Source: a virus. From it: DNA of 64,000 nucleotides. This document shows, one piece after another, positions 8,455-54,718 of this stretch. The stretch is taken from positions 30,224-94,223 of the IMG/VR virus record IMGVR_UViG_3300031949_000004, one strand, 5' to 3'. The first letter of the stretch is position 1. Each line of letters opens with the position of its first letter. The translations under genes and the position numbers were made by a program. Below the pieces are notes generated by a model that worked only from the letters and a program-made list of their open reading frames with translations, had not been told where the DNA came from and made no database searches.

Positions 8455-9582
8455 ATGCTTCGCCTGGCCTTGAATCTTCTCGTTCTCAACGGCGAAGTCG
8501 TGTTGCCGCGCTGTCTGCGTTCGGTGGCCGGGGCCATTGATGAGCTGGTGGTCGTGGATTCGGGCTCGACCGATCGCACGCGTGAGGTTGTGACCGAGCT
8601 GGCGAGAGAGCTGAAGGTCGATCGTTTTCATTTCGAGCAACTGGATACCGCTTCCGACGATTTCTTCACCGACGCCCCGGAGTCCTGGAAGCGTTCGATG
8701 CCTGGACCGTTCACCGGCAGAAGAGTGCTCAAGGACTGGGCCAAGGCTCGTAATCTTGCCTTGGCCAACACCACGGCTGACTACGTGCTCAAGCTCGATG
8801 CCGACGACGAGCTGCGTTCGCCGCCGGAGAATTTGCGCAAGGCGTGCGTTCACTTGGATGCCGTGCCCGACAAGCACAAGCATTTCCTCTTCACACCTTA
8901 CGAGATCTACGAGGCTGGCAAGCTGACGTTCTTGTCCATGCAGTCGCGTTTGTGGCGGCGGGGGCCGCACACGCGTTGGGTGCAGCCCATCCATGAGTAC
9001 CTACGAGGTATGGTTGATGAGTGCTGTTTGCAGGTTGCCCAAGGGATCTGCGTGCGCGATTGGAAAGATTCGCCGGGTGAGGGTGTGCGCATCGCGCACC
9101 GGAACCTCAAGGTGTTGGTCTGGCATTGCGATAACCAGTCGCCCGCATGGCCGGGTCACGATGATGAAATCTGGACGTTCACGCTTGCCACCGAGGTGGT
9201 GCCGGTATTTCCAGCTTGGGGCCGAGAGCTTCTGACATCACTCCTCGATCGTCCATCGTTGCCCAGCAGCTCGATGCCCGCCGACTGCTACTACCACCTG
9301 GGGTGCGCTTACGAGGTCGAAGGCAACGACGAGATGGCCATGGCCTCCTATCTCGCGGCAGATCGTGTGGGGAGCAAGCACCTGCTGGCTTTGCTTGCGG
9401 CGATCGAGTTGCATCGTCGAGCTGGGAGTCGAGATTCGCTGGAGTGCCAAAAGCTCGTGGATAAGGTCTTGAGCATTGCAGGGAGCATGCCGGGAGATCC
9501 ACTTCCGTTCAATGTGAACCTGCAACCGCTCATTGTTTTGCGCGACGAGTTTTCTCGCAAGTCTCGCGAGGTGGTGCCATGA
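8455..9582 (+). CDS. glycosyltransferase family 2 with C-terminal TPR-like region
   Basis: VVVDSGSTDRTREV is a GT2 signature and the LKLDADDEL DxD-like motif is present. The C-terminus is helical and repeat-like. Confidence 0.6.
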   Translation: MLRLALNLLVLNGEVVLPRCLRSVAGAIDELVVVDSGSTDRTREVVTELARELKVDRFHFEQLDTASDDFFTDAPESWKRSMPGPFTGRRVLKDWAKARNLALANTTADYVLKLDADDELRSPPENLRKACVHLDAVPDKHKHFLFTPYEIYEAGKLTFLSMQSRLWRRGPHTRWVQPIHEYLRGMVDECCLQVAQGICVRDWKDSPGEGVRIAHRNLKVLVWHCDNQSPAWPGHDDEIWTFTLATEVVPVFPAWGRELLTSLLDRPSLPSSSMPADCYYHLGCAYEVEGNDEMAMASYLAADRVGSKHLLALLAAIELHRRAGSRDSLECQKLVDKVLSIAGSMPGDPLPFNVNLQPLIVLRDEFSRKSREVVP

Positions 9583-9803
9583 AATCGGAAAAACGGTCGG
9601 CGTGTTTGCGTCGGTACGGGCAGTTGGTCGAATCCTACTATCAACAAGGGCGACGGATGCCGATGCTCATGGACGAGTTCTGGGAGCTAGCTTTCCATGC
9701 TATCGGCCCCAGTGAAGTGGGTAGGCGGCCTGGCATCGTGAATGAGATTGCTGCGTCCTTGCTCTATACCGAGGCGGTTGTGTTGGAGGCTCAAGGGAAA
9801 TGA
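9579..9803 (+). CDS. hypothetical protein
   Basis: 74-aa ORF. Confidence 0.3.
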   Translation: MKSEKRSACLRRYGQLVESYYQQGRRMPMLMDEFWELAFHAIGPSEVGRRPGIVNEIAASLLYTEAVVLEAQGK

Positions 9804-10189
9804 GCCCCAGGGAAGTGGTTTTGTCGTGCTTTGGAGCCGTGATCTTGCTCGGGTTGTTCTATCAGGCGCGGCAGATCTACCGGTGGTGGTGCAAGGCGCA
9901 GGAGCGCAAGCGGGAGCTGGAGCGGCAAATGCGCAGGGACATAGATGAAATCATGCGACAAGTCGCCACGGAAAAGATTCCAGAGTCGTTTCGGCGAGAG
10001 ATGATGGCGTGTATTCCCGTTGAGCATGGCGGTTCGTTTCGGCAGGAGGGCAGTGATGGCACATCACAAGCACCAGCGAGCGGGCTGCCTTTTGTGCAAG
10101 CCGCAAAAGGACGAGCGGGTCGCCAAGAGCCTGAAAAACCAGTAAGCGTCCGGCGCCGGTTGCAAGGCACCGGGGAGGATGAACGGTGA
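9800..10189 (+). CDS. membrane protein with coiled-coil region
   Basis: N-terminal hydrophobic helix VVLSCFGAVILLGLFY followed by a charged coiled-coil-like segment. Confidence 0.35.
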   Translation: MSPREVVLSCFGAVILLGLFYQARQIYRWWCKAQERKRELERQMRRDIDEIMRQVATEKIPESFRREMMACIPVEHGGSFRQEGSDGTSQAPASGLPFVQAAKGRAGRQEPEKPVSVRRRLQGTGEDER

Positions 10190-10824
10190 CTCGCGGGGGT
10201 GCCAGGATCTCCTCTGGCAAGGACTCGAAGCAGGACTATCGAACGCCGGCCGATTTCATGGAGGCCGTGATCGAGCGATTTGGTCCCATCACGCTCGATC
10301 TGGCTGCCACGGCCGAGAACAAGCAATTACCTAACTACATTGCCCCTTGTACCGGTCCCGAGGGGCCGCTGCCGTTCGACCGCGAAGCCTTCGCCGTCGA
10401 TTCGTTCGATCAGAACTGGGCGAACTTGTTGACGAATCGGTTTCGCCGGGAGGGTTTCGTGGGACTCGGCTGGTTGAATTGCGAGTTCAACGATACTGCG
10501 CACTGGTCAACCAAGTGTGGCGACGAAAGTCGTCGGGGTGCCAATGCCTTGTTGCTCACGCCCGCAGGAGTAGGTACGGTCTGGTTTTCCGAGCTGATTT
10601 TGCCATATGCCGATGTGTACCTTCTTCAACCCAGGCTCGCGTTCATTCCGGGGCAGACCTACAACAAGGACTGCATGCTGTCTCATTTTGTTTCTCCCGA
10701 AACGCGCTCGTCCGGCAAGTTCGCGGTCAAGGGACTACCGCCTGACGCAACCAACCAGCGTTTCATCGAGATCTGGAATTGGAAAAAGCGGAAGACATTG
10801 CAACGGTGGGCAAGGGAGACGTGA
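10186..10824 (+). CDS. phage N-6-adenine DNA methyltransferase (Dam-like)
   Basis: DYRTPADFMEAVIERFGPITLDLAATAENKQLPNY matches the phage Dam MTase family N-terminus (YxTP...LDxAA). SAM/NPPF-like region WFSEL. Confidence 0.65.
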   Translation: MTRGGARISSGKDSKQDYRTPADFMEAVIERFGPITLDLAATAENKQLPNYIAPCTGPEGPLPFDREAFAVDSFDQNWANLLTNRFRREGFVGLGWLNCEFNDTAHWSTKCGDESRRGANALLLTPAGVGTVWFSELILPYADVYLLQPRLAFIPGQTYNKDCMLSHFVSPETRSSGKFAVKGLPPDATNQRFIEIWNWKKRKTLQRWARET

Positions 10825-18504: not shown

Positions 18505-18581
18505 AAGGACTTGACAGCGAACGCGAAACTACGTCAGATCGTTAGCTAACTTGTCAGCGGTGCTGGAGAACTGGAGAACGG

Positions 18582-19727
18582 ATGAACTTCACGGGAAAGT
18601 ACGCGTCGTGCGAGGTCATGATCGATGATATCGATCAAAGCGCGGTCCAGCAGATCTACGGGTTCTTGAACTGCGAGGTGTTCGCCGGCTCCCAGATCCG
18701 AATCATGCCTGACGTGCATGCCGGCATCGGCTCGGTGATCGGCTTCACCGCCACGTTGGGGGAGAAGATCATCCCGAACGTGGTCGGGGTGGACATCGGC
18801 TGCGGCATCGCGAGCTACTGCCTGGGGCGAGGCATGCCGCTCGACTTCGATGCTCTGGACAAGCACGTTCGCAAGAGTGTGCCGAGCGGGTTTTCCGTTC
18901 ATGTCGCCCGGCCGAAGTTTCTCGGTCTGGCGGATGATCTGCTTTCGCAGGCGGCGCGCGTGGCCCACGAGACGGAGCAGGACGAGGCACGCGTGCTCCG
19001 GTCGCTCGGTACCCTGGGAGGCGGCAACCACTTCATCGAGTTGGGCAAGGACGAAAACCGGGATGCTTGGCTCACCATCCACACGGGCTCGCGCAACTTC
19101 GGGCTCAAGGTGGCCGAGTATCACCAGCGCAAGGCGAGCCGTATGCCTGGTAAGGGCGATGTGCTGGCATACCTCGAAGGCGAGGAGGCCGCGCTTTACT
19201 ACGAGCACATGAAGGTCGCCCAGGAGTACGCGAGGATGAACCGTGTGCTCATCGCCAGGGCGCTCATCTCCTTCTTCATGCCCGAGGCTTGGGACGCGTG
19301 GGAGAAGACGTGGGAGGAGAGGGAGCTGGATGTCGTGGAGAGCATCCACAACTACATCGACTTCGAGGATCGGATCATCCGCAAGGGCGCCATCTCCGCG
19401 CACGAGGGGCAGCGGGTGGTGATCCCCTGGAACATGCGCGATGGGCTCATCATCGGCCGGGGCAAGGGCAACGCTAACTGGAACTGGTCGGCGCCGCATG
19501 GGGCAGGGCGGGTCATGTCGCGGGGGGCGGCTCGCAAGAAGCTCGATGTCGCGGACTTTGCGAAAACCATGGAAGGGATCTGGACCTCGTGTGTGGGCAA
19601 GGCAACGCTCGACGAGGCACCCATGGTTTACAAGGATCCGAATACCATCGAGCAGGCCATCGGTGACACGGTTGATGTCGAGCTGACCGTCAAGCCGCTC
19701 TACAACTTCAAGGCGAGCGACCAGTGA
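18582..19727 (+). CDS. rtcB: RNA-splicing ligase RtcB
   Basis: Motifs MPDVHAGIGSVIGF, VGVDIGCGI, GGGNHFIEL and SAPHGAGR are RtcB metal-binding and His-GMP signatures. Confidence 0.85.
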   Translation: MNFTGKYASCEVMIDDIDQSAVQQIYGFLNCEVFAGSQIRIMPDVHAGIGSVIGFTATLGEKIIPNVVGVDIGCGIASYCLGRGMPLDFDALDKHVRKSVPSGFSVHVARPKFLGLADDLLSQAARVAHETEQDEARVLRSLGTLGGGNHFIELGKDENRDAWLTIHTGSRNFGLKVAEYHQRKASRMPGKGDVLAYLEGEEAALYYEHMKVAQEYARMNRVLIARALISFFMPEAWDAWEKTWEERELDVVESIHNYIDFEDRIIRKGAISAHEGQRVVIPWNMRDGLIIGRGKGNANWNWSAPHGAGRVMSRGAARKKLDVADFAKTMEGIWTSCVGKATLDEAPMVYKDPNTIEQAIGDTVDVELTVKPLYNFKASDQ

Positions 19728-20071
19728 CGGGTGAGATGTTGACACCCGAGGAAATTCTGAAGTGGCTCGATGAGGCACTGCAAGCCGATGTTTGTTTGCA
19801 GGTACAGATTGGTCCGCGCATGGTGATAACAGGATCCATTCATGTTTCAGCGCGTTCGGGATGCAAGCCGGAGATCTGTTCGACATATCCGACCGTGGGT
19901 GCTGGGATAGTGGATGTACTGGCCGCTCTGGATAAGCAGAGATGCGTGAAGCCCCTGCCCGAAGATGATGCCGAAAAGTGTCCTGAGTGTGGAGCCCCCG
20001 TTCGCGCGAAAGAGCTGAGTGAAGGTGGTGGTGTGGTTTGTACACGTTGTACCTGGTGGTTTTGTTACTAG
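19724..20071 (+). CDS. hypothetical protein with C-terminal zinc ribbon
   Basis: 115-aa ORF with CPECG...CTRC. Overlaps the rtcB stop. Confidence 0.35.
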   Translation: MTGEMLTPEEILKWLDEALQADVCLQVQIGPRMVITGSIHVSARSGCKPEICSTYPTVGAGIVDVLAALDKQRCVKPLPEDDAEKCPECGAPVRAKELSEGGGVVCTRCTWWFCY

Positions 20072-20079
20072 GAGATCGT

Positions 20080-20217
20080 CATGATTGACGGAAAAACCAT
20101 TGCCGATTTGCGTATCCGCTTGCTCACGATGAGGGTGGCGGAGGCCAAGAAGAAGGACATGCGCTCCGGGAAGTGCGACCTCAAGCCGCTCTACAACTTC
20201 AAGGCGAGCGATCAGTG
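20080..20217 (+). repeat. recombination junction / chimeric 45-aa ORF (5' copy of the gene at 21468 fused to a 3' copy of rtcB)
   Basis: 20080-20177 is about 85% identical to 21468-21565 (MIDGKTIADLRIRLLTMRV...). 20178-20217 duplicates the rtcB 3' end at 19687-19727 (KPLYNFKASDQ*). Confidence 0.6.
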
Positions 20218-21225
20218 AAGGATCTGAAAGAATTGTTCGGGCGTTGTGGAGCGGGGATTCTGATCCTGCTCGTGAAGGTGGGATTCAAGCTCATGGCTAC
20301 CTTGGTCAAGATGACCAAGGCTCTGAAGGTTGGAAAAGTCGGGCTCGCAACGGTTTCGTTCGCCAGTTACGCGTACATCTTCACCTGGAAGTTTGCGTTG
20401 GTGCTGATGGGATCGATTTTCATTCACGAGTGTGGGCATGTTTGGGCTATGCGGCGTTGCGGAATGCCGACGAAAGGGGTTTATTTTATTCCCTTTCTGG
20501 GGGCGGCAGCCGTAAGTAGCGAGGGCGCCTTCAAGACCCGAGCGACTGAGGTCTACGTGGCCTTATGGGGACCGGCGGTCGGGATGTTGCTGGCCGTGCT
20601 GGTTGGCTTCTGCTACTTCCTTCATCCCGATCCTGTGCTGGCAGCCGTGGCAAGTTGGATGGCGATGATCAACCTGTTCAACCTGTTGCCGATCAGCCCG
20701 CTTGACGGCGGGCGCGTCCTCAAGTCTCTCATGTTCTCCGTGAACCGGTTCCTCGGTTTGACTTGGTTGGCAGCGGGGATCTTGGTGGCATGCGTGTTGG
20801 CGACCAAAGCCAACCTTGGTCTCTTCACATTCCTGGCAGTCATCGGCTTCTTTGAGTTTGCAGGCGAGCTGTGGCGAAAATCCGAACGGATGCGTCGGTG
20901 GATTGCCAAGAAACGCGACGAACACGAGGAGAATCACAAACGCGCCATCTTCATTCTGAAATTTCCATGGGTGAGTCGGGAGGCGACTCCCGCTATATGG
21001 AAAATGGAACAACAAAATGCTAAAAACGCCGAGAAAGGCATGATTTGGTGCGACCGTAAGCTCGCTACCATGTCCGGCAACCAAGATGTTCCTTCACTGT
21101 CTGTGTTTGAGTTCGCAGTGACAGTGTTTTCGTTCTTAGGATTGGTTGTCATCCTGTGGGCATTGATGGTGTCCATGAAACACGTTCCCGGAGCCGAGGT
21201 TGCCTTGAAGTTGTTGGAAGGATGA
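20215..21225 (+). CDS. membrane metalloprotease, M50/site-2 protease-like
   Basis: HExxH as FIHECGHVWAMRRCG inside a hydrophobic helix, with multiple TM segments and a downstream LNLLPISPLDGGRV (LDG motif). The GTG start overlaps the upstream TGA. Confidence 0.5.
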   Translation: MKDLKELFGRCGAGILILLVKVGFKLMATLVKMTKALKVGKVGLATVSFASYAYIFTWKFALVLMGSIFIHECGHVWAMRRCGMPTKGVYFIPFLGAAAVSSEGAFKTRATEVYVALWGPAVGMLLAVLVGFCYFLHPDPVLAAVASWMAMINLFNLLPISPLDGGRVLKSLMFSVNRFLGLTWLAAGILVACVLATKANLGLFTFLAVIGFFEFAGELWRKSERMRRWIAKKRDEHEENHKRAIFILKFPWVSREATPAIWKMEQQNAKNAEKGMIWCDRKLATMSGNQDVPSLSVFEFAVTVFSFLGLVVILWALMVSMKHVPGAEVALKLLEG

Positions 21226-21467
21226 GACAGTTGTAACGGAATCGAGAGATGGTGTTGATGTCACGATGCAATTGTGACGCGTTTTGTGACGAGCCTGTAT
21301 GCCCGGTTCATGGGCGACTACGCAGTGATACGGATGATGAGGTTGTCATGCGTAACGGGAAAACGTGTTGTTGGTACCATGCTACAGGAGGAGCGCATGA
21401 CAACTCCTGCGGTGGTGACGATGCTGCACTATCGGAACGGGGTATCATTCACTAAGGAGTGTTAACC

Positions 21468-21893
21468 ATGATTGACGGCAAGACCATTGCAGATCTCCGG
21501 ATCCGCTTGCTCACGATGCGGGTGACGGAGTCCAAGAAGAAGGACATGCGCGCCGGGACGCGTGACCTCTTCGTCGAGGCGCTGTTCCCCGCGACATCGA
21601 ATCGCGTGTTCTACGAGATCTTCTCGCCCGTGATCGGCGAGCTTCTGGCCATGGCCGATGGTTTCGGCAAGCTCCAGCGCGTGCGCGAGTTCTGCCGTGA
21701 TCTGCAAAACGGCGGCAAGGGCTTCGAGCACGGGCAGGGACTCGACCCGCGCCGGGCGTTCGATGCCCTGTGCTCGGACATCGAACGGATCTTCCAACAG
21801 TTCGAGGAGCTGGAAACCATTGCGAAGGAAACTACCATCGCTCGCGTCGACGATGATGCCCCTTCGCCGGTTGCAAAGGATCGGCAGCCATGA
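21468..21893 (+). CDS. hypothetical protein
   Basis: 141-aa ORF. Its 5' 100 nt is duplicated at 20080. Confidence 0.4.
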   Translation: MIDGKTIADLRIRLLTMRVTESKKKDMRAGTRDLFVEALFPATSNRVFYEIFSPVIGELLAMADGFGKLQRVREFCRDLQNGGKGFEHGQGLDPRRAFDALCSDIERIFQQFEELETIAKETTIARVDDDAPSPVAKDRQP

Positions 21894-22721: not shown

Positions 22722-23140
22722 TTTTGCTAGCTAACGATGCCAGTGTGGCGAACATGCCCACGAAACGCAAGATTTTGAAACGTTCTCATTCGCGGCGGCT
22801 CGGGGAGCCGTCGCTCCGGTTGACCCTGGGGCAAACGATCCACGAATTGCGCGAGCGGAAGGGTTTGTCGTTGCGGGCCCTGGCTAAGCTGGTCGGCGTG
22901 TCCGCACCATTTTTGTGCGATGTCGAGAAAGATCGTCGAAAGGTCAGATCGCTCGATGCGTTGGCCAAGGCGCTCGATGTGTCGCCCGAGAAGCTGTGTG
23001 TGCTCGACAACCGGGTCACAGCCGATCTGAAAGCCTGGATCGAGAAGAACCCCGAGGTGCTCGCCGTGTTGCGCCAGATGTACACGCAAGGCTACCAGGA
23101 CGTGCCCTTTCTCATGAAAAGGCGGCGAGGTGTCAGATGA
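22718..23140 (+). CDS. XRE-family helix-turn-helix transcriptional regulator
   Basis: TIHELRERKGLSLRALAKLVGVSAPFLCDVEKDRR is a canonical HTH_XRE. Confidence 0.55.
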   Translation: MILLANDASVANMPTKRKILKRSHSRRLGEPSLRLTLGQTIHELRERKGLSLRALAKLVGVSAPFLCDVEKDRRKVRSLDALAKALDVSPEKLCVLDNRVTADLKAWIEKNPEVLAVLRQMYTQGYQDVPFLMKRRRGVR

Positions 23141-24603: not shown

Positions 24604-25754
24604 GCGAGCTGGTAGCCATCACCGACCTGCACCTGGGCGACAGGGATCCCGAAAACGGCTCCGTGCTCACCTCGCCCAAGGTGCGGCAGACCTTTGCTAA
24701 CGTGCTCGGCGAGCTGGTGGGGTGGACCATCGACACCCTCGTCATCACCGGAGATCTGTTCGAGGTGTGCGTGCCTTCGCGTACAGTGAAGCAAGATCTC
24801 CTGCATGAGACAACTTGCTTCGGGCTCTACAACAGCACGGTTGAGGACGCGGGAGCGTTCTTCGCCGAGCTGGGTAAGGTTATCGACATCAACCAGCTTG
24901 TCTGGGTACCGGGCAACCACGACTTTGTCTTGTATCGCCGTATCTGCGGCAACGGCAGCCTGGTTCGTCCGCGTAAGCTGCGCGAGGACGCGATCTGGCG
25001 GCAAGATGCCGAGCTGGCAAGGCTCTTTGGCTCCGAGATCTCGAATATCGTCGCCTCGTTCCCGAATTACGTTCGTGAATGCTCGGCTGGCTGGCCTTTG
25101 GCGATCTTCACGCACGGCCATCTTTTCGACAACCAGGTGCTCAAGCCCACTGCCGGCTTTCTCAAAGCCCTGGGCCTTACTTTGGAGACAGGGCACCTAT
25201 GGGATCCAATCCCGGAGAACATCGACACGGATGGCGGCTCGTGGACCAAGAAGCTGGTCGAGCTGACGAACCATCGCGTGTTCGAGATCTGGCCGCAGAA
25301 CTTGAACCTGGTCGCGGAGGCTGTCTACGACTACGTGCTACGCAGGAACACGAGGGTCTTTTGCGCCGACAGGCCCGAAAAGCCCATGGTAAGGCTCATC
25401 AAGCAGGCATTCGAGAAGATCAATCCGTCGAGTAGTCTCCGAGGACGTCTCGGTTGGTATCTGGACAACACCTTAGTCGACATCGCTCCGGTTGTGCCGC
25501 TTGGAGGCGACAAACTGCTACTTGGGAGCGACAAACCACCCTTGCATTCGTTCTTCGTGTGTGGGCACACGCATGATCCGGGCGCCTGGTTGCATGAATC
25601 GTTTGATGGTTTGACCTTCGAGATCTATGATCTGGGCGGCTGGACCATGGATGCTGCTAAGAATCGCGACAACGTGCCGCACACGCATGCGATCGTGTGG
25701 AACCACTTTCCAGGTGCGCCGTATTGTTATGCGCTCAATGTGGGGAAGCCGTGA
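24600..25754 (+). CDS. calcineurin-like metallophosphoesterase
   Basis: ITDLHLGDRD, ITGDLFE, VWVPGNHDF, FTHGHLFD and VCGHTHDPG appear in order. Confidence 0.6.
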   Translation: MSELVAITDLHLGDRDPENGSVLTSPKVRQTFANVLGELVGWTIDTLVITGDLFEVCVPSRTVKQDLLHETTCFGLYNSTVEDAGAFFAELGKVIDINQLVWVPGNHDFVLYRRICGNGSLVRPRKLREDAIWRQDAELARLFGSEISNIVASFPNYVRECSAGWPLAIFTHGHLFDNQVLKPTAGFLKALGLTLETGHLWDPIPENIDTDGGSWTKKLVELTNHRVFEIWPQNLNLVAEAVYDYVLRRNTRVFCADRPEKPMVRLIKQAFEKINPSSSLRGRLGWYLDNTLVDIAPVVPLGGDKLLLGSDKPPLHSFFVCGHTHDPGAWLHESFDGLTFEIYDLGGWTMDAAKNRDNVPHTHAIVWNHFPGAPYCYALNVGKP

Positions 25755-26068
25755 CGAAGTTGTTCGATACCGTTGCCATTGCCCTCAAGCGCAAGCGTCT
25801 GGTGCCAGCCACCAAACGCATCCAGCACGCGAACGGGCAAGTCACCTTCGTCTGGCACGTCGACGACAACGATGATCGTTTTGTGTCGATGACGGATTCG
25901 GCGAAGAGCGAGAGCGTCTTGCTGATTACGAGGGATTGCATGTCGGTGGAGGCGAAGATCTCCCGCGACCGGGTATACATTATCGACAAGGTTGTTTCAG
26001 ATCTGAACAAGCTTGGGGGCGGAGATGGGCGGGTGCTCAAGGCTGGCGCGAGCGAAAGGAGATCTTGA
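25751..26068 (+). CDS. hypothetical protein
   Basis: ORF with a GTG start. Confidence 0.25.
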   Translation: MTKLFDTVAIALKRKRLVPATKRIQHANGQVTFVWHVDDNDDRFVSMTDSAKSESVLLITRDCMSVEAKISRDRVYIIDKVVSDLNKLGGGDGRVLKAGASERRS

Positions 26069-26382
26069 TGTTCCTGGTGCGCGCGTTCCTGGAATTTGAC
26101 GTGTTCCTCCTGGTTTTCTTGACCTGGGAGGTTGCCGTGCCGATCTTACGTGGACGGCCCCGGTTTCCCATCTGTCGATGGATCGGGCGCCGGCTGCTGC
26201 GTCTGGCTCCCAAGTCCACGACCACCGAGACCTTGCTTGAATCTTCGACACGTCGCATGCGCGAGGCGAAGGTGCGTCTGGACGCCGCGAAGACTGATCT
26301 GCTTGCTGCCGAAACAGAGCAAAAAGCTCTGGAGATGGAAGAGGCGACGAACGAACTGAGAGAAAAAGGAGGAGACCGATGA
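26068..26382 (+). CDS. small membrane/coiled-coil protein
   Basis: N-terminal hydrophobic segment and an AKVRLDAAKTDLLAAETEQKALEMEE coiled coil. Confidence 0.3.
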   Translation: MFLVRAFLEFDVFLLVFLTWEVAVPILRGRPRFPICRWIGRRLLRLAPKSTTTETLLESSTRRMREAKVRLDAAKTDLLAAETEQKALEMEEATNELREKGGDR

Positions 26383-27626
26383 GTCACGAGACCACCCCCC
26401 GCAAGACGAGTTCTGGTTGGACCGTTACCAAAGTGATCGCCCTAGTCGCCGTGCTTGCCACGGCAATTGTTCTCGTTTCCATGATCCGAGGCGTCTTCGA
26501 GACGGTCGATGCCGGCGAGATCGTCGTTAAGCAAGGCTTCTTCTCGGGCGAGCTGACGTTCTGGAAGGATCCTGGCCCGAAGCTCCAGATGTGGGGCAAA
26601 TGTACCCACTACAAGAAGTCGTCGCAATACTGGTTTTCCAGCCGAAACGATCAGGGTACGCAGGTCGACCAGTCCATCCAGCTTCGCTTCAACGACGGTG
26701 GTCACGGCAAGCTTTCGGGCAGCGTGCGCTACAACCTGCCGTCCGACGATACCAGTATGAAGCTTCTGCACGAGCGATACGGCTCCCAGGAGGCCATCGA
26801 CCAGTCGCTCATTCGCACGACCTTCGAAAAAGCGGTCTACATGTCCGGCTCGCTCATGTCGAGCACGGAGTCTTTCGCGGCGAGGCGCAACGAGCTTCTG
26901 GGGCTCATCGAAGATCAGGCCGAGCGGGGCGTCTACAAGTCGTCCTCGTCTTGCGAGCGGCAGATGGATCCCGTCACCAAGTCCGAGAAGACCGTGTGCG
27001 TGGTCAAGCTGGAGCACGATGACAAGGGTCAGATTGCACGCGTAGAAGCCTCCCCGCTCGCCGCCTACCACATCACCTTGACCAACTTCTCGATCAACGA
27101 GCTGTCCTACGACAAGGAAGTGAGCAATCAGATTCAGGCGCAGCAGTCCGCCATCGCGGCCATCCAGACTTCGGCCGCGCAAGCTCGGCAAGCCGAGCAG
27201 GGCGCCATCACGGCGGCCGAGAACGGCAAGGCGCTGGCGGCGACGGCGAAGTGGAAACAGGAGGTCATCAAGGCCGAGAAGGTGACCGAGGCCGAGCAGC
27301 AAAAGGAAGTGGCGAGGTTGGCCAAGGAAGCCGCCGAGTACAAGAAAGCCGAGCAGATCTTGTTGGGCGAGGGCGAAGCTGCACGTAAGAAGGCTGTCAT
27401 GATCGCCGATGGCGCACTTGAAAAGAAGCTGGCCGCGCTCATCGAGATTAACGGCAAGTACGCCGAGGCGTTCGGCAAGCAGTCGCTCGTGCCCGAGATT
27501 GTCATGGGCAGCAGCGGTGGCGGAAACGCTGCCTCGAATGCGGTTTCGCTGGTGGACATGATGACGGTCAACACGGCCAAGCAGCTCGGGCTTTCGTTGC
27601 GCGTTCCTGGAGTGCCGGGCAAGTAG
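26379..27626 (+). CDS. membrane-anchored SPFH/band-7-like protein with Ala/Glu/Lys-rich coiled-coil tail
   Basis: N-terminal TM helix VIALVAVLATAIVLVSMI, then a beta-rich domain, then an A/E/K-rich helical region of about 120 aa (QAEQGAITAAENGKALAATAKWKQEVIKAEKVTEAEQQKEVARLAKEAAEYKKAEQ). Confidence 0.4.
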   Translation: MSHETTPRKTSSGWTVTKVIALVAVLATAIVLVSMIRGVFETVDAGEIVVKQGFFSGELTFWKDPGPKLQMWGKCTHYKKSSQYWFSSRNDQGTQVDQSIQLRFNDGGHGKLSGSVRYNLPSDDTSMKLLHERYGSQEAIDQSLIRTTFEKAVYMSGSLMSSTESFAARRNELLGLIEDQAERGVYKSSSSCERQMDPVTKSEKTVCVVKLEHDDKGQIARVEASPLAAYHITLTNFSINELSYDKEVSNQIQAQQSAIAAIQTSAAQARQAEQGAITAAENGKALAATAKWKQEVIKAEKVTEAEQQKEVARLAKEAAEYKKAEQILLGEGEAARKKAVMIADGALEKKLAALIEINGKYAEAFGKQSLVPEIVMGSSGGGNAASNAVSLVDMMTVNTAKQLGLSLRVPGVPGK

Positions 27627-40318: not shown

Positions 40319-40606
40319 ATGTCCTGGCTGCTTTGTTCCTGTGGCAACCACATCAAGGACATGTCGCTCCCTCAAGAGGGAAAGGCACACATCGTCACTG
40401 ACGACGATCTGGACGGCAATACTAATTACGTTTACAACACCGATCTGGACGGCAATACTAATTACGTTTACAACACCGTTGACATAAACGTGCCCAGGAG
40501 ACGTATGTATGTCTGTCGTGAGTGTGGTCGGTTGCTCGTCGAAACCGCGCCCGGCTCCCAGATGTACATCTATTTCGTTCCCGAGACCGATCGCCTGGAG
40601 ATCTAG
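40319..40606 (+). CDS. hypothetical protein containing an in-frame 36-nt tandem duplication
   Basis: DLDGNTNYVYNT encoded twice by a perfect 36-nt tandem repeat at 40400-40471. C-terminal CRECG zinc motif. Confidence 0.35.
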   Translation: MSWLLCSCGNHIKDMSLPQEGKAHIVTDDDLDGNTNYVYNTDLDGNTNYVYNTVDINVPRRRMYVCRECGRLLVETAPGSQMYIYFVPETDRLEI

Positions 40607-46765: not shown

Positions 46766-46842
46766 TGGTCTCCCCGGCGGGACTCGAACCCGCAAGCTCC
46801 CGTTTAGGAAACGAGCGCCAGTTCCATTCTGGCTTCGAGGAG
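46766..46842 (-). tRNA. tRNA-Arg(CCT), CCA encoded
   Basis: Hand-folded. Acceptor CTCCTCG/CGGGGAG, anticodon stem CTCGT/ACGGG, loop TTCCTAA, T-arm GCGGG-TTCGAGT-CCCGC. Confidence 0.55.
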
Positions 46843-46901
46843 AAAGCCCGGCGAGGTGGCCGGGGAAGTTGATCAAAGCGGCGGTGACAGCGAGGCGCCC
46901 G

Positions 46902-47426
46902 CTACGGCTGTAGCGGTGCCCGCCAGTAGTTGGCCCATTCGGGCGGTGCCTTGCGGTCGAGAGGCACCAGGATGTGCGGCAGGTTGTGAGGCTTCTTGGG
47001 CACCGCGCGAAGCCTCATGCCGGCCTCGGCGAGGGTTTTGTCCGCCTTGTTCCGGTTGCAGTCCACGCAGCAGGCGGCGACGTTCTCCCAGGTCGTTCGG
47101 CCGCCCTTGGAGCGAGGCACGACGTGGTCGAGCGTCAGCTCTTCGGTGACGAACCTGCTGCCGCAATACTGGCAGGTGAAGTTGTCGCGGGCGTAAATGT
47201 TGATGCGCGAGAACTTGATCCTCATGCGCTCGCGCTTGAAGCTGCGCACGAGCTTCACGACCGAGGGCATGGGCCAGGTCTGGCTGGCGCTTCGGATCGT
47301 CTTGTCGGCGCTGTACTCGACGACCTCAGACTTGCCAAGCAGGACGTCGCAGAACGCCCGCTGCCAGGAGTCGACCCTGAGAGGTTGCATGCCGACATCG
47401 AGAACCAGAACTGCTGCGGTTGACAT
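46902..47426 (-). CDS. HNH endonuclease
   Basis: CQYCG...LDHVVPRSKGG...WENVAACCVDCNRNK is a classical HNH. Confidence 0.7.
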   Translation of the reverse strand: MSTAAVLVLDVGMQPLRVDSWQRAFCDVLLGKSEVVEYSADKTIRSASQTWPMPSVVKLVRSFKRERMRIKFSRINIYARDNFTCQYCGSRFVTEELTLDHVVPRSKGGRTTWENVAACCVDCNRNKADKTLAEAGMRLRAVPKKPHNLPHILVPLDRKAPPEWANYWRAPLQP

Positions 47427-47479
47427 GATGACTGTTTCCTTGTGTTGCGGCGGTCAATGTTGCGGGGTTGTTTTCATGT

Positions 47480-47569
47480 GGTGCCGAAAGGGGGAGTCGA
47501 ACCCCCAGCGCCCGTGAGGGCACACGGGTTTGAGCCGTGCGTGTCTACCAGTTCCAACCATTTCGGCAT
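47480..47569 (-). tRNA. tRNA-Leu(CAA), CCA encoded
   Basis: Acceptor GCCGAAA/TTTCGGC, anticodon stem CACGG/CCGTG, loop CTCAAAC, long variable arm. Confidence 0.6.
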
Positions 47570-47577
47570 AGTGTTAC

Positions 47578-48040
47578 TTAGGGAAGCATCGTAATACCTT
47601 TTTCAACTTCTGCATGACAGTTTTTGCACACCAATACACATTTCTTCCACTCAATCACAATTGCCTCCCACGATCTTGACCACAGGTTTGACGTGCCTAG
47701 CTGAAATAGTTTGGTGTTCCTGTCCCTGTGATGAAAGTCCAAAGCTCCTGAATACTTGTTGTAGCCACATAGAAGACAACACCCTCCCGACATTTCTATG
47801 AGTCTGCATCTTCGTTCTTTTCCACGTTCTACGGTTCTCTCTGCATACCGCCTGCGATCTTCAATGGGGAGTTGGTGATAGTCTCGCATTCTCCTTGATG
47901 GTCGAGACGGATCGTCGACTTTGGTGTTATGGGCGCCGAATGGCGAGCAAAGTAGACAAAATTTTCGCGTTTGAAGGAACCTGATCTTGCCGTCGAGTCG
48001 AATGCTCCAGGGTATTCGGGCACCACATTTCCTACACAGT
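47578..48040 (-). CDS. HNH endonuclease-like protein
   Basis: CLLCGYNKYSGALDFHHRDRNTK...CKNCHAEVE is an HNH/zinc motif. The N-terminal part of the called ORF (to 48150) is a tRNA translation (SNPS), so the true start is downstream. Confidence 0.45.
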
Positions 48041-48046
48041 CTCTTT

Positions 48047-48122
48047 GCCCGCACGGAAGGATTTGAACCCTCAACCCGTTGGTTCATTACGCCTAACTGC
48101 TCTGCCAATTGAGCTACGTGCG
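48047..48122 (-). tRNA. tRNA, isotype undetermined (irregular anticodon arm)
   Basis: Canonical acceptor CCGCACG/CGTGCGG, D-arm GCTC-AATTGGCA-GAGC and T-arm. The anticodon region has 3-4 extra nt and could not be folded canonically. Confidence 0.4.
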
Positions 48123-48202
48123 GATACCGGCGTCGCCTGTCAATGAGCACACATCATTTTACCACTAAGCTAAGACACTGTAACATTAGGCTATTGTTGG
48201 TA

Positions 48203-48340
48203 GGGGCAGAAGGGTTTGAACCTCCATCCCGGTTTCCCGGACCTGCTTTTGGACGATGCCCCTTTGGTGGGGAGGGGTAGATTGACCTACCATCCCTTGG
48301 GCCGAAACCCGCTGGTGTCTTACGTTAGACGACCTCCCCT
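48203..48340 (-). other. two tRNA-like elements, not resolvable by hand
   Basis: T-arm motifs (GGTTCAAACCC) and acceptor-like ends with CCA (tggtagggg, tggtgggg) are present. D and anticodon regions are non-canonical. Confidence 0.25.
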
Positions 48341-48346
48341 CATTTG

Positions 48347-48750
48347 TCAGCGGTAGAGCGGTAGCTCCGACACCACCTTTCTGACCGGGCGACGGTCGTT
48401 CACGAGGGCGATCCCTATAGCGGTTGCCTGGCCCGTGTACGGGGGATCTACCTCTTCGATGAGGGTGTGGTCCACCTTGGCCTCCGCGAGCCTGCGCGCG
48501 AGCGTACGAAGCCGGGGCTCGTCGGCGGCTTGCAGGAGAACCACGTGGGTCTCCGGCGGATGCGGCGCCTGGGCGCCGGCTGCATGGGCAATCTGCGCGG
48601 CGGCGAAGCCCCTTGGGAGATCGGCACGCGCGATGATGTAGGCCGTGGGGGGGAGGGCGGGACCGGTGTTAATGGATCGAGCGACGCATGTTCCCAGGAT
48701 ACACACGTTTGAGATCTCGTCAAGGGGCTTGACAGAAAAGCCGGTCATGG
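48347..48750 (-). CDS. peptidyl-tRNA hydrolase, PTH2 family
   Basis: YIIARADLPRGFAAAQIAHAAG matches the PTH2 core (vvRxDLxMxxGKiaAQcxHAa). The ORF's N-terminal extension is spurious. Confidence 0.5.
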
Positions 48751-48964
48751 CATCATAGGATCTCGCGCTGGGAACTGGCTCAGCAATGAACGGCTCGGCT
48801 AACTGGATTGCCCGAGCCGTTCGCTTTTTCAGCGCCCTGCTCGATAGGCCCGAGCTTTCAAGGCGTGGGCATGTCGGCACAGGTCGCATCGGCAACCGCA
48901 CTGCCCGCGATATGGTCCCCAACGTTTAACCTCTGGAATCATGGCTGCCATTTTACCACGCTTG

Positions 48965-49038
48965 TACTCGGGATGGGATTCGGACCCACAACAACAACGT
49001 TCTGAACGTTGGGCCTCTTCCAGTTGGGCTACCCGAGC
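48965..49038 (-). tRNA. class-I (short variable arm) tRNA with anticodon CAG (Leu codon CUG)
   Basis: Acceptor GCTCGGG/CCCGAGT, anticodon stem CAACG/CGTTG, loop TTCAGAA, 5-nt variable loop. Confidence 0.45.
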
Positions 49039-49044
49039 ATGTTG

Positions 49045-49125
49045 TGGAGGAGAAAGGAATCGAACCTTCACGTCTTTCGACACCGGGGCTTAAAGCCGGC
49101 GCGGCTGCCATTTCGCCACTCCCCC
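49045..49125 (-). tRNA. tRNA-Leu(TAA)
   Basis: Acceptor GGGGGAG/CTCCTCC, loop TTTAAGC, 13-nt variable arm hairpin. Confidence 0.5.
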
Positions 49126-49135
49126 AAGACAATTG

Positions 49136-49219
49136 TGCGAACAGCGGGGATCGAACCCGCAGTGCTCTTACGAGCCCGGCACCTCAAGCCGGTGCGTCTT
49201 CCAGTTGCGCCATGTTCGC
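49136..49219 (-). tRNA. tRNA-Leu(GAG)
   Basis: Acceptor GCGAACA/TGTTCGC, anticodon stem CCGGC/GCCGG, loop TTGAGGT, long variable arm. Confidence 0.6.
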
Positions 49220-49224
49220 ATGAG

Positions 49225-49299
49225 TGGGGACACCGGGACTCGAACCCGGAGCTTCTTGTTCCTAAGACAAGCGCCTCGTTCCAGTTGGGCTATGTCCCC
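49225..49299 (-). tRNA. class-I (short variable arm) tRNA with anticodon TAG (Leu codon CUA)
   Basis: Acceptor GGGGACA/TGTCCCC, anticodon stem CTTGT/ACAAG, loop CTTAGGA. The D-arm is nearly identical to the CAG tRNA at 48965. Confidence 0.45.
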
Positions 49300-49300
49300 G

Positions 49301-49374
49301 TAGTCCGCGAGGGAGTCGAACCCCCAACCCGTCGCTTATAGAGCAACTGCTCTACCCATTGAGCTACCGGACCA
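49301..49374 (-). tRNA. tRNA, Ile(TAT)-like anticodon
   Basis: D-arm GCTC-AATGGGTA-GAGC, anticodon stem GTTGC/GCGAC, loop TCTATAA (C at position 33). Confidence 0.4.
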
Positions 49375-49386
49375 TTGTTGTCTCTG

Positions 49387-49458
49387 CGGTGCCACCGAGA
49401 GTTGAACTCGGGCTTCTGCCTTGACAGGGCAACGTCAGTTCCGCTTGACCATGGCACC
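49387..49458 (-). tRNA. tRNA-Asp(GTC)
   Basis: Acceptor GGTGCCA/TGGCACC, loop CTGTCAA. Confidence 0.6.
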
Positions 49459-49806
49459 ATGTTGACACTTCCTCGAACAATAAAACCGCCTTGTTCCGAT
49501 TCGTATACCCCATCTGTATTTATATCCTGCTAATACAAAACTTTCAGCACAGAATGCACAACACAGGGTTACCACTGTTCCTCGTTTGATGTTGTGTTTG
49601 CTTACATGTTGACCTTTCATCGTCTTCTCAAGGTTAGAGAATTGGTTGTCCTGCTTGTTTTCGTTTTTGTGGTGAACCTCTTCCCTCAAGCGCATTACTT
49701 CGCCGGTGTTCTGCCACCACACGAGATGGTGTTCATAGCACTGGTTTTTCGCGTAGATTTTCCCAGGGTATCCAGGAGGGGCGATGACCTTCTTGTAGGT
49801 AGACAT
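49435..49806 (-). CDS. HNH endonuclease
   Basis: EEVHHKNENKQDNQFSNL (HH...N...DNxxNL) plus CCAFC...CSRKCQH zinc ligands. The 3' end overlaps tRNA-Asp by about 24 nt. Confidence 0.55.
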   Translation of the reverse strand: MSTYKKVIAPPGYPGKIYAKNQCYEHHLVWWQNTGEVMRLREEVHHKNENKQDNQFSNLEKTMKGQHVSKHNIKRGTVVTLCCAFCAESFVLAGYKYRWGIRIGTRRFYCSRKCQHGAMVKRN

Positions 49807-49848
49807 TGCCAACACCTTACCATTTGATCGGGCGATGAAGTCCAAAAT

Positions 49849-49922
49849 TGGTTGGAGGTAAGGGACTTGAACCCCTCTCTTCGGCGTGTAGGACCGAGGC
49901 ACAACCTCTATACCAACCTCCA
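49849..49922 (-). tRNA. tRNA-Val(TAC), CCA encoded
   Basis: Acceptor TGGAGGT/ACCTCCA, anticodon stem TCGGT/GCCGA, loop CCTACAC. Confidence 0.45.
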
Positions 49923-49926
49923 GTAG

Positions 49927-50000
49927 TGCGCGCAGCAGGAGTTGAACCTGCGGCCTTCGCCATGTCGAGGCGGTGCTCTTCCAGGCTGAGCTATGCGCGC
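49927..50000 (-). tRNA. tRNA-Val(GAC)
   Basis: Acceptor GCGCGCA/TGCGCGC, D-arm GCTC-AGCCTGGAA-GAGC, loop TCGACAT. Confidence 0.55.
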
Positions 50001-50004
50001 GTGA

Positions 50005-50256
50005 TCAGGAACGTACGGACTTGCGCCCGGCGAGTTCTCGGGATGAAGCTTCGATGGAGCTGCGCACATCCTCGGGCAGCTCGCTCATGTCGATCCTTCT
50101 GCCCTTGAGCTTTCCCGTGGCCAGCTTGCCGATGACACCGAGGAACTCGTCGCGATCTTTCGGGGCGAGCGTGCTCAAGAACATCTTGGCCTGGGTCGAC
50201 ATCTGGATAGCCATGGTCTTCGGCCTGCTTGTCGACTTTCGCCTTTTTTTGGGCAT
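50005..50256 (-). CDS. small basic hypothetical protein
   Basis: N-terminal PKKRRKSTSRPK. Confidence 0.3.
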   Translation of the reverse strand: MPKKRRKSTSRPKTMAIQMSTQAKMFLSTLAPKDRDEFLGVIGKLATGKLKGRRIDMSELPEDVRSSIEASSRELAGRKSVRS

Positions 50257-50259
50257 CCG

Positions 50260-50616
50260 TCAGCTCAAGTAGGACACGACCTCGTAGCGGTTCGAGGGCA
50301 TCTTGTGCCAGGTCAGCACCCAGGAGAATCGCTGACGCTCGGAGTCCCGGTGCTTATAGACCGTGCTCATCCGCCCCTCGCGCCCGCACAGAATGAATGC
50401 CTCTTCCTGGGGATCCTCGGCCGAGAACCCGTGCTCGTGCATGAACTCCATGATGGGGCTCACGGGGATCGCCTCGAAGTAGGTGTTGTGCGTGAGCTTC
50501 GAGAGGAAGTCGTTCACGGCGTCCTTGTCGTGCTTGAGGGTCTTCCGGGTGGCAGCCATGGGGTGGCCGCGCTCCCCTAGACCGAGATCATTCGGGCGAT
50601 CACGAAAGCTTGGCAT
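50260..50616 (-). CDS. hypothetical protein
   Basis: 118-aa ORF adjacent to the small basic ORF inside the tRNA array. Confidence 0.3.
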   Translation of the reverse strand: MPSFRDRPNDLGLGERGHPMAATRKTLKHDKDAVNDFLSKLTHNTYFEAIPVSPIMEFMHEHGFSAEDPQEEAFILCGREGRMSTVYKHRDSERQRFSWVLTWHKMPSNRYEVVSYLS

Positions 50617-50746
50617 GCCTTTATCCTGCTCCTGATCTTGGCGACCGTCAACCCGTTACGAATGCGCTGCGTTGTGGCGCCAGCGGGTGCCGCCCCCGCC
50701 AATCCTGGCTTATGAAACCTGGTCGAGCTGCTAGGCTCTGGCGCCG

Positions 50747-50823
50747 TGGTGTCCCCGCCCGGAGTTGAACCGGGAACTCAGGTTTCGTAAACCTGTGTGA
50801 TATCCAGTTTCACGCACGAGGAC
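50747..50823 (-). tRNA. tRNA-Arg(ACG), CCA encoded
   Basis: Anticodon stem CAGGT/ACCTG, loop TTACGAA. Confidence 0.65.
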
Positions 50824-50824
50824 A

Positions 50825-50901
50825 TGGTACCCGCGAGAGGACTCGAACCCCCACAGACTCGATCCGAAGTCGAGTGCCCTTTTCCATTAGGCGACGCGGG
50901 C
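50825..50901 (-). tRNA. tRNA-Arg(TCG), CCA encoded
   Basis: Anticodon stem CTCGA/TCGAG, loop CTTCGGA. Confidence 0.65.
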
Positions 50902-50909
50902 ATGTTGTG

Positions 50910-50983
50910 TGATCCCAGGGGGACTCGAACCCCGCATTCCCGGCTTGAAGGGCCGGTGTCCTGACCGATTGGACGATGGGACC
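50910..50983 (-). tRNA. tRNA-Glu(TTC)
   Basis: Anticodon stem CCGGC/GCCGG, loop CCTTCAA. Confidence 0.6.
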
Positions 50984-50986
50984 GGG

Positions 50987-51065
50987 TGGTGATCTCGGGG
51001 GGATTTGAACCCCACATTCCCGCCGTGAGAGGGCGGTGTCCTGAGCCGGGTTAGACGACGAGATC
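50987..51065 (-). tRNA. tRNA-Glu(CTC), CCA encoded
   Basis: Anticodon stem CCGCC/GGCGG, loop CTCTCAC. Confidence 0.6.
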
Positions 51066-51073
51066 GTGTGTAG

Positions 51074-51148
51074 TGTCCTCGGCCGGAATCGAACCGGCAA
51101 CCTCGACGTTCGGAGCGTCGTACTCTGATCCATTTGAGCTACGAGGAC
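51074..51148 (-). tRNA. tRNA-Arg(CCG)
   Basis: Anticodon stem CGACG/CGTCG, loop CTCCGAA. Confidence 0.65.
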
Positions 51149-51149
51149 G

Positions 51150-51317
51150 TTTGGTAGCTTCGGTGTAAAAGTCCAAGCCTCCCCACCTTCGTCGCATGTG
51201 ATGCTTCATCCATTCGATGAAGTGTCGGTAACAACGACCGCAGTATGCAACCGCGAACTCTCGAAACAGGTGTCCGGTTGCTGGGTGATAAGGCCCACCA
51301 CAAGCAAAGCAACGCAT
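51150..51317 (-). CDS. small zinc-binding hypothetical protein
   Basis: MRCFACGG...YCGRCYRH. The called ORF extends further 3' into a tRNA. Confidence 0.2.
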
Positions 51318-51330
51318 GATTTCCTTTCCG

Positions 51331-51404
51331 TGCGCCCGGCAGGAGTTGAACCCGCAACCTTCCGTGTAGAAGACGATTGCTCTTGTCCATTGAGCTACGA
51401 GCGC
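51331..51404 (-). tRNA. tRNA-Arg(TCT)
   Basis: Loop CTTCTAC. Confidence 0.55.
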
Positions 51405-51543
51405 ATGTTGATGAATTGGAGCCCGCCGGCAGGATTACCCCACCCCGAAGGTATTCTAGTAGTGACCCCGCGCGAGGTCAGGAACATGGCTTATTAGGCC
51501 ATCGATAGCCTTCCAGTGGTCTGACGACCACAACGGACATAAG

Positions 51544-51615
51544 CTCCGGGAACTGGGATCGAACCAGTGACTTCACGCTTAACAGGCGTGCCGCTTTCCT
51601 CTCGCGTACCCCGGA
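51544..51615 (-). tRNA. tRNA-Asn(GTT)
   Basis: Anticodon stem CACGC/GCGTG, loop CTGTTAA. Confidence 0.65.
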
Positions 51616-51635
51616 ATATCTATTGAAACAACTTG

Positions 51636-51709
51636 AGCTGGTGAGAGGAATTGAACCCCCAACCAACGCATTACAAATGCGCTGCTCTACCTATTGAGCT
51701 ACACCAGCG
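51636..51709 (-). tRNA. tRNA-Thr(TGT)
   Basis: Anticodon stem GCGCA/TGCGT, loop TTTGTAA. Confidence 0.65.
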
Positions 51710-51711
51710 TA

Positions 51712-51803
51712 GCGGGGACCGGATTTGAACCGGTGAAACCTGGCTTATGAGGCCAGTGGGTTTCGATCTGACGTGAGCCAGACCTCCATACTTCCCTACC
51801 CCG
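51712..51803 (-). tRNA. tRNA-Met(CAT)-like with atypical 5' region (about 23 extra nt in the D region)
   Basis: Anticodon stem CTGGC/GCCAG, loop CTCATAA, T-arm ACCGG-TTCAAAT-CCGGT, acceptor 3' strand present. The segment between the acceptor and the anticodon arm is too long. Confidence 0.3.
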
Positions 51804-51806
51804 CAG

Positions 51807-51878
51807 AGCCCACGCGGGGAATCGAACCCCGTTCTCCGGCTTACGAAACCGGCACATCACCATCTATGCTTCGTGGGC
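51807..51878 (-). tRNA. tRNA-Thr(CGT)
   Basis: Acceptor GCCCACG/CGTGGGC, loop TTCGTAA. Confidence 0.6.
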
Positions 51879-51957
51879 GCGTATCCGGTTCTCGCACAAT
51901 CCAGTGCAGCGTTGTGCCTGACGCTGGAGAGCTGAAGAGGGTCGAGAACCGTGTGGT

Positions 51958-52032
51958 TGGAGCGACGTACAGGAGTTGAACCTGCGCAATGCTGCTTGGA
52001 AGGCAGCCGCCTTACCGTTCGGCCAACGTCGC
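51958..52032 (-). tRNA. tRNA-Gly(TCC), CCA encoded
   Basis: Anticodon stem GCTGC/GCAGC, loop CTTCCAA. Confidence 0.65.
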
Positions 52033-52038
52033 ATGTTG

Positions 52039-54717: not shown

Positions 54718-54718
54718 G

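Follow-up and report, generated by a model that had tools for sequence, protein, structure and literature searches.

Phage mosaicism is mostly inferred from patchy similarity between genomes, and the actual joints seldom survive. Illegitimate recombination is the prevalent hypothesis for its origin, and illegitimate and homeologous recombination (the latter of the lambda Red type) have both been discussed as routes to mosaic genomes (Martinsohn, Radman & Petit 2008, PMC2327257). Here we describe a stretch of 64,000 nucleotides from a virus (IMG/VR record IMGVR_UViG_3300031949_000004, positions 30,224 to 94,223; hereafter the window) in which a chimeric open reading frame (ORF) of 45 codons joins the 5′ end of a gene that we call X to the 3′ end of rtcB. 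Judging from gene content, the source looks like a large uncultured phage. This mini-ORF is probably the joint left by one unequal, non-homologous crossover between two related, distinct phage genomes, at a microhomology of 2 nucleotides.

The locus resembles mosaic junctions made by illegitimate recombination in that unrelated sequences are joined with few common bases, the parental gene orders are found in related phages, the closest relative shifts from gene to gene, and the accessory genes at the seam have an atypical composition. Most described mosaic junctions fall at gene boundaries and have lost the redundant pieces, whereas the present joint is internal to two genes and retains both stubs. 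Because the stubs survive as an in-frame fusion, the event can be reconstructed base by base. The locus also resembles homeologous recombination, since the likely left crossover would fall inside rtcB between sequences that are about 80-90% identical, but similarity is lacking on either side of the right joint, where X codon 34 meets the rtcB tail. The scar is probably a standard product of illegitimate-recombination mosaicism with a homeologous crossover on its other side, and the unusual feature is its preservation.

Structure of the joint

The elements that define the joint are as follows. M50 denotes the membrane metallopeptidase gene that follows the mini-ORF, and L011 is one of the related contigs introduced below.

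18582-19727, plus strand: rtcB (RNA 3′-phosphate/5′-OH ligase), full length, 381 amino acids
19690-19730, plus strand: repeat A, the native rtcB 3′ end (last 12 codons, stop codon and 3 nucleotides further)
20080-20182, plus strand: repeat B′, which corresponds to codons 1-34 of gene X in diverged form and is preceded by an AGGAG ribosome-binding site of its own
20081-20218, plus strand: chimeric 45-codon mini-ORF in which X codons 1-34 are joined in frame to the last 11 codons and stop of rtcB
20181-20182, plus strand: crossover point, a 2-nucleotide overlap (TC) common to repeats B′ and A′
20181-20221, plus strand: repeat A′, which duplicates the rtcB 3′ end and aligns with the L011 rtcB/M50 junction
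21467-21569, plus strand: repeat B, the 5′ end of full-length gene X
21468-21893, plus strand: gene X, 141 amino acids

A direct-repeat search identified B′ and B as a pair of 103 nucleotides that is 87% identical (offset 1387), and A and A′ as a pair of 41 nucleotides with 39 identical positions (offset 491). When the repeats were used as blastn queries against the window with their own positions masked, the pairs were recovered with expectation values (E) of 5e-32 and 1.5e-13, respectively, and the next best match had an E of 0.47. A scan of all 64 kilobases (kb) found no other long direct repeats beyond transfer RNA (tRNA) paralogs, an array resembling clustered regularly interspaced short palindromic repeats (CRISPR), and one tandem duplication of 36 nucleotides. 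Along the window, the repeats are ordered A...B′A′...B. The mini-ORF encodes MIDGKTIADLRIRLLTMRVAEAKKKDMRSGKCDL followed by the rtcB-derived segment KPLYNFKASDQ*, its TGA stop codon overlaps the GTG start codon of M50, and it was called as a gene in the contig deposited in ENA. Repeat A′ retains a GAT codon that is common to the relatives L006, L011 and L013.

A preliminary description of the region had proposed a recombination scar, and a scar formed by illegitimate recombination at a tiny microhomology is borne out. Both duplications that it reported are real, with positions that differ from ours by 1-3 nucleotides, and the sequences at the crossover share only TC, as expected for an illegitimate seam. 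The same description placed the crossover at GACC. There is indeed microhomology at the joint, but GACC at 20177-20180 pairs with rtcB 19685-19688 only at an offset of 1 nucleotide (GACCGTC in rtcB, GACCTC in the mini-ORF). Native, uninterrupted contexts of both joined sequences exist, both in the window (the end of rtcB and the start of X) and at junctions in L006, L011 and L013. A conserved paralogous N-terminal domain, which would offer another source for the similarity, was not seen, and none of the relatives examined carries the mini-ORF. The repeats and the fusion are therefore confirmed as an observation.

The same joint, 100% identical in sequence, is present in the ENA MEGAHIT contig k141_1554128 (140.7 kb; k=141). 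A JGI source, with a longest contig of 194 kb, likewise has an entry for the mini-ORF protein. All of these assemblies may come from one read set, and a Logan k=31 contig (SRR9005073) breaks at the repeat, both of which might be taken to mean that a chimeric read or the misassembly of two co-occurring strains created the joint. However, the Logan contig starts at 20182, which is the first unique 31-mer past a 31-nucleotide exact repeat (20181-20211). A break there is normal behavior at such a repeat and is expected if the reads hold both copies of the rtcB tail. Moreover, the 2-4 nucleotides of microhomology at the joint cannot make a de Bruijn-graph join without reads that contain it, so an artifact of the assembly graph is excluded and the joint must be in the reads. 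The X copy in the mini-ORF also matches no other known sequence. We regard an artifactual origin as highly improbable.

Gene order in relatives

Three further ORFs occupy the interval between rtcB and X in the window.

19724-20071, plus strand: zinc-ribbon ORF, 115 amino acids, with a GTG start overlapping the rtcB stop or an ATG start at 19736
20215-21225, plus strand: M50 (site-2 protease family) membrane metallopeptidase, 336 amino acids, intact, with a GTG start and a weak Shine-Dalgarno (SD) sequence
21249-21455, plus strand: cysteine-rich ORF, 68 amino acids, third-position G+C content (GC3) of 0.46, a putative coding ORF

RtcB relatives at 88, 83, 82, 72 and 66% identity were traced to their contigs, and gene orders were established by local tblastn. 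The orders that bear on the joint are listed here, with HTH denoting a gene for a helix-turn-helix domain protein.

Window: rtcB / zinc-ribbon ORF / mini-ORF / M50 / cysteine-rich ORF / X / g63 / g211 / HTH ... g105 / g104 / Band_7
L006-L010 (RtcB 88%): rtcB / X / g104-like / Band_7 / g211 / HTH
L011 (RtcB 83%): rtcB / M50 / 102-amino-acid ORF / Band_7 / methyltransferase / X / g63 ... g211 / HTH
L013/L014 (RtcB 82%): rtcB / M50 (frameshifted) / g104-like / Band_7 / X / g63 ... g211 / HTH
L016 (RtcB 66%): rtcB / g104-like / Band_7

The content of the rtcB-X interval differs in every relative examined. In L006-L010, X (10001-10387) lies directly 3′ of rtcB (8865-9998), with the L006 junction reading '...GATCAGTAACCATGATTGAC', and the two genes are probably adjacent on the P0003 contig. 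An uninterrupted junction of this kind had been predicted in the preliminary description. In L011 and L013/L014, the rtcB stop codon instead overlaps the M50 start codon (GTGA and ATGA, respectively), and positions 20181-20251 of the window align base for base with the junction of rtcB end and M50 start in L011. Two gene orders therefore meet at the joint, because both parental adjacencies, rtcB|X and rtcB|M50, are found as native arrangements in relatives. Since rtcB|M50 is native in L011 and L013/L014, the rtcB tail in the mini-ORF is the native 5′ flank of M50 and not a target duplication. On the strength of these alignments, we consider that M50 is not a foreign insert.

This conclusion differs from the earlier proposal that a mobile cassette carrying M50 and small ORFs was placed between adjacent rtcB and X genes by homing-type or illegitimate recombination, with the duplications as its brackets. 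The rtcB|X adjacency of L006-type relatives and the G+C content of the 20-22 kb region, which is below that of its surroundings, would both suit an insertion. However, M50 directly follows rtcB with a conserved stop/start overlap in relatives of two types (L011 and L013/L014). The rtcB|M50 order looks like the older one, and g104-like and Band_7 genes lie 3′ of rtcB in L011, L013 and the outgroup L016. Furthermore, the duplications lie interleaved within the central part of the supposed insert instead of flanking it, terminal inverted repeats are lacking, and searches of 19.7-21.5 kb with Pfam, PHROGs, NCBIfam and PADLOC revealed no endonuclease, integrase or transposase domain. An insertion is thus very unlikely, and its homing-type version finds no counterpart among the encoded proteins.

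Several more specific candidates were also considered and rejected. A cassette based on a homing endonuclease, intron or intein would be expected to leave a corresponding domain in the ORFs of 19.7-21.5 kb or a match to an Rfam intron, and neither was present. For a transposon or insertion sequence, there is neither a transposase nor a terminal inverted repeat, and the direct repeats are 41 and 103 nucleotides long and interleaved. No defense system at the seam was matched in Pfam, PHROGs, NCBIfam or PADLOC. Finally, the rtcB 3′ end does not qualify as a linker for exchanging cassettes, because it is not unusually conserved: third-position identity is 0.69-0.73 in the last 13-25 codons and 0.72 overall. 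The seam matches no Rfam family and has no promoter, and its only terminator-like sites are weak and fall below chance expectation.

Probable origin by crossover between two genomes

The crossover would have involved two parents, and we infer both their co-infection and the direction of events. Parent A would have carried rtcB, the zinc-ribbon gene and X, which is the rtcB|X adjacency of the L006 type plus a small accessory gene. Parent B would have carried rtcB, M50 and, further downstream, X, as in L011 and L013. Exchange would pass from parent A, after X codon 34, into parent B at a point where 11 codons of rtcB remain. The left molecule would thereby supply rtcB, the zinc-ribbon gene and X codons 1-34, and the right molecule would supply the last 11 rtcB codons, M50, the cysteine-rich segment, X and everything downstream. 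The recombinant would hold one complete rtcB, both the zinc-ribbon gene and M50, one complete X, and between them the 45-codon fusion of X 5′ and rtcB 3′ ends. On its left side, the exchanged patch may end inside rtcB near nucleotides 90-180, where a homologous or homeologous crossover could have occurred.

Unequal crossover of two A...B molecules leaves the repeat order A...B′A′...B as its signature. The same order is also exactly that of a tandem-duplication joint, so a duplication within one genome must be weighed. Under that scenario, the segment from the rtcB tail to X codon 34 would have been doubled head to tail, by slippage or by unequal sister exchange in concatemers, after which the first copy of the cargo would have been replaced by the zinc-ribbon gene and the copies would have diverged. 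The X copy in the mini-ORF is indeed closest to the X of the window (13 differences, compared with 19 to L006 and 28 to L011), and the two have a KKKDMRxG stretch in common. However, the units between the repeats, 19731-20079 (349 nucleotides) and 20222-21466 (1245 nucleotides), show no convincing homology, let alone along their whole length. Comparison yields no blastn match longer than 10 nucleotides and one weak, out-of-register tblastx match. A tandem duplication would also require a second, precise replacement event.

The divergence of the X copies is likewise difficult to accommodate by duplication in place. The copies differ at 13 of 102 nucleotides, and their synonymous divergence (pS) of 0.30 is at the level seen between lineages, as the value for the window X and L006 X is 0.31. 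Across codons 1-19, there are 7 nucleotide changes and 0 amino acid changes (P about 5e-5 if neutral). Such purifying selection would be unexpected for a redundant fragment drifting in place, and it indicates that most of the divergence accrued within a working X gene of another lineage. Polarisation with L006 and L011 assigns most of the synonymous changes to the mini-ORF branch, with G/C replaced by A/T. Together, the unrelated cargo, the divergence at between-lineage level and the silent changes favor two lineages over duplication within one genome, which we judge to be unlikely.

Mosaicism is pervasive here, as judged by sequence similarity. The genes 5′ of rtcB, g211 and the HTH gene are closest to L011, whereas rtcB, X, g108, g72 and g105 are closest to L006. 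By sliding identity, the first ~90 nucleotides of rtcB are closest to L011/L013 and nucleotides ~180-450 are closest to L006. A left-hand crossover at this switch within rtcB is only suggestive.

Some observations somewhat dampen our enthusiasm for a crossover between two parents. No genome with the exact parent A order (rtcB, zinc-ribbon gene, X) was found in any collection searched, and the best homolog of the zinc-ribbon gene resides in an unrelated context. The full-length X of the window is closest to that of L006, so parent B is not simply L011-like. The breakpoint inside rtcB has a p of about 0.01, uncorrected. By chance, 1 in 3 joins would be in frame in any case, which makes the frame weak evidence for selection. 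Lastly, the scar is known from one genome and possibly from one sample, as the three assemblies may represent the same sample.

The mini-ORF and expression of M50

Stop/start overlaps of the form ATGA or GTGA are typical of translationally coupled gene pairs. The rtcB/M50 overlap in L011 and L013 has this form, and the mini-ORF repeats the overlap in front of an M50 gene with a weak SD sequence. As a result of the in-frame fusion, the mini-ORF stops at the TGA which, in native rtcB|M50 junctions, overlaps the start codon of M50. In known coupled pairs the upstream partner is a full gene, whereas here it would be a chimera of 45 codons that arose by accident, and coupling at this locus is predicted from the sequence. 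The calculated SD strengths are -7.3 kcal/mol for the mini-ORF (AGGAG, with good spacing), -8.5 for X and -4.3 for M50, and the M50 genes of L011 and L013 both score -2.8. Ribosomes loaded at the mini-ORF AGGAG could still pass to M50, whose own site is weak. Thus, coupling by termination and reinitiation may be preserved, and the mini-ORF may now drive M50 translation. The kept overlap offers a plausible rationale for the survival of the recombinant, and it is not evidence of selection because of the prior chance of an in-frame outcome given above.

It is tempting to view the mini-ORF as a selected small gene, either an upstream ORF that M50 translation requires or a 45-amino-acid peptide whose X-derived N-terminal helix modulates X or its partner. 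Such a role would suit the strong SD sequence, the in-frame join and the stop codon overlapping the M50 start, as well as an N-terminal segment of 19 residues that is unchanged despite 7 nucleotide changes. It would also suit a crossover that falls just past the predicted first helix of X (residues 4-25, low confidence). However, the mini-ORF occurs once and has no orthologs, the silent-only pattern fits divergence before the fusion equally well, and the mini-ORF branch carries S22A and R32C at positions that are conserved in homologs. An origin as a selected gene is therefore doubtful. Later co-option of the crossover product, as an upstream ORF that M50 now needs or as a micro-protein that interferes with or tunes the partner of X, also seems rather unlikely.

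Genes of the rtcB-X interval

RtcB matches its families over nearly its full length (Pfam RtcB PF01139, 7e-58 over residues 37-377; PHROG 1075, 1e-121). A 590-amino-acid RtcB homolog from a JGI metagenome (P0027) carries HNH_3 and intein-splicing Pfam domains. By these domain matches, some phage-type rtcB genes host inteins, and the rtcB gene of the window does not.

The zinc-ribbon ORF fits precisely into the space that separates the rtcB stop from the X-type start. It has a low GC3 of 0.53, did not receive a gene call in the ENA contig, and is absent from all relatives compared. Its N-terminus is an orphan. Its C-terminus (19944-20071; residues ~75-115) carries the motif CPxCGAPxRAKELxEGGGVxCTxCxWWFCY, which is shared by 50 homologs with 14 invariant columns. 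Nothing in Pfam matches this segment above threshold, and zf-FPG_IleRS is the only sub-threshold match. The module is always C-terminal and occurs on many unrelated N-termini of small metagenome proteins. Because its last ~40 residues belong to this recurrent module, the zinc-ribbon ORF is probably a real accessory gene.

The M50 protein has the motifs HECGH at residue 71 and NLLPISPLDG at residue 156 and several hydrophobic segments, as expected for its family. It matches Pfam PF02163 (1.3e-16), PDB entry 3b4r (6e-10) and SpoIVFB (1e-3), and is 75% identical to the L011 protein and 79% identical to that of L013. The gene is split by a frameshift in L013 (11146-12127) and L014 (10652-11633), giving 224 amino acids followed by 104 amino acids in another frame. 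Thus, these sequences suggest that some members of the group can dispense with M50 or are losing it.

The cysteine-rich ORF has no homologs and was not called in the ENA contig. It sits where L011 and L013 have a g104-like gene, Band_7 and sometimes a methyltransferase gene. Phage 'morons' are small accessory genes inserted between conserved genes. The zinc-ribbon and cysteine-rich ORFs are similar to them in being small, low in GC3, absent from relatives and located exactly between conserved genes, but, in contrast to morons, neither a promoter nor a terminator was detected for them.

Gene X has no match in Pfam, PHROGs, NCBIfam or PADLOC, and a sequence search of the PDB returned nothing meaningful. 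Among 5.8 billion proteins, only four homologs were found (81, 81, 64 and 51% identity), and the N-terminal 19 residues are invariant in all of them. The protein is predicted with low confidence to be all-helical, and the crossover lies in the linker just past helix 1 of this model. The AlphaFold model has a pLDDT of 56, which is too poor for a fold search.

The g104-like gene and Band_7 (SPFH) form a pair that lies shortly 3′ of rtcB in L006, L011, L013 and L016: directly after rtcB in L016, after M50 in L011/L013 and after X in L006. In the window, Band_7 (26379-27626), together with g105 and g104 (25751-26382), is located ~6 kb further downstream, behind a metallophosphoesterase gene. On these gene positions, the shift of the pair is a second rearrangement of the same neighborhood.

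Genome context

The window has a G+C content of 58%, and its genes include those for RtcB, Band_7, a metallophosphoesterase and a vault-like protein. A search of cultured phages found no close relative of the window, and the only matches were distant and confined to rtcB. More relatives were sought in IMG/VR with single proteins and with an alignment, which returned nothing, and in JGI metagenomes, which returned only the contig already known. Scans of viral and genome collections with degenerate DNA patterns likewise gave no close relatives.

An array of 38 tRNA genes occupies 46.7-55.6 kb (46766-55566, minus strand), with anticodons covering 19 of the 20 amino acids. The same genome thus carries both this array and an RtcB RNA ligase.

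The CRISPR-like array (57254-59880) consists of ~29-30 copies of a repeat of ~36 nucleotides (GTCGAAAGCTTCGAGTGCCTTCGGAACTCTTGTCAC), with a spacing mostly of 70-74 nucleotides. One spacer is duplicated exactly (58717-58790 equals 58791-58864), and a block of 115 nucleotides is repeated at 93% identity (57392-57506 and 57869-57983). Adjoining the array is an ORF of 634 amino acids (59860-61764, minus strand) that matches the Pfam family Cas12f1-like_TNB (3.4e-9). By sequence, the array and this ORF resemble a compact, phage-borne CRISPR-Cas system of type V. Elsewhere, positions 40405-40476 hold the exact tandem duplication of 36 nucleotides, two copies of CGATCTGGACGGCAATACTAATTACGTTTACAACAC.

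A perfect palindrome, GTTAGCTAAC, is located at 18541-18550 in the gap 5′ of rtcB. A copy with one mismatch, GCTAGCTAAC, is found at 22726-22735, shortly 5′ of the HTH-domain gene (22754-23140). Allowing up to 1 mismatch, the window contains 4 matches to the motif, where 0.6 would be expected. Considering these positions, the palindrome may be an operator motif that bounds the block from rtcB to g211.

Implications

The locus reveals no new mechanism or system, and it represents a clean but ordinary case of how phage mosaics form. Its value lies in a single event that can be reconstructed to the base, including the 2-nucleotide microhomology, the in-frame outcome and the retained coupling signal, which makes it useful as a teaching or benchmark case. 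If the mini-ORF has been co-opted, it would document a recombination joint giving rise directly to a new small gene. For the phages themselves, the rtcB-X interval emerges as a variable slot in an uncultured, tRNA-rich and CRISPR-bearing group.

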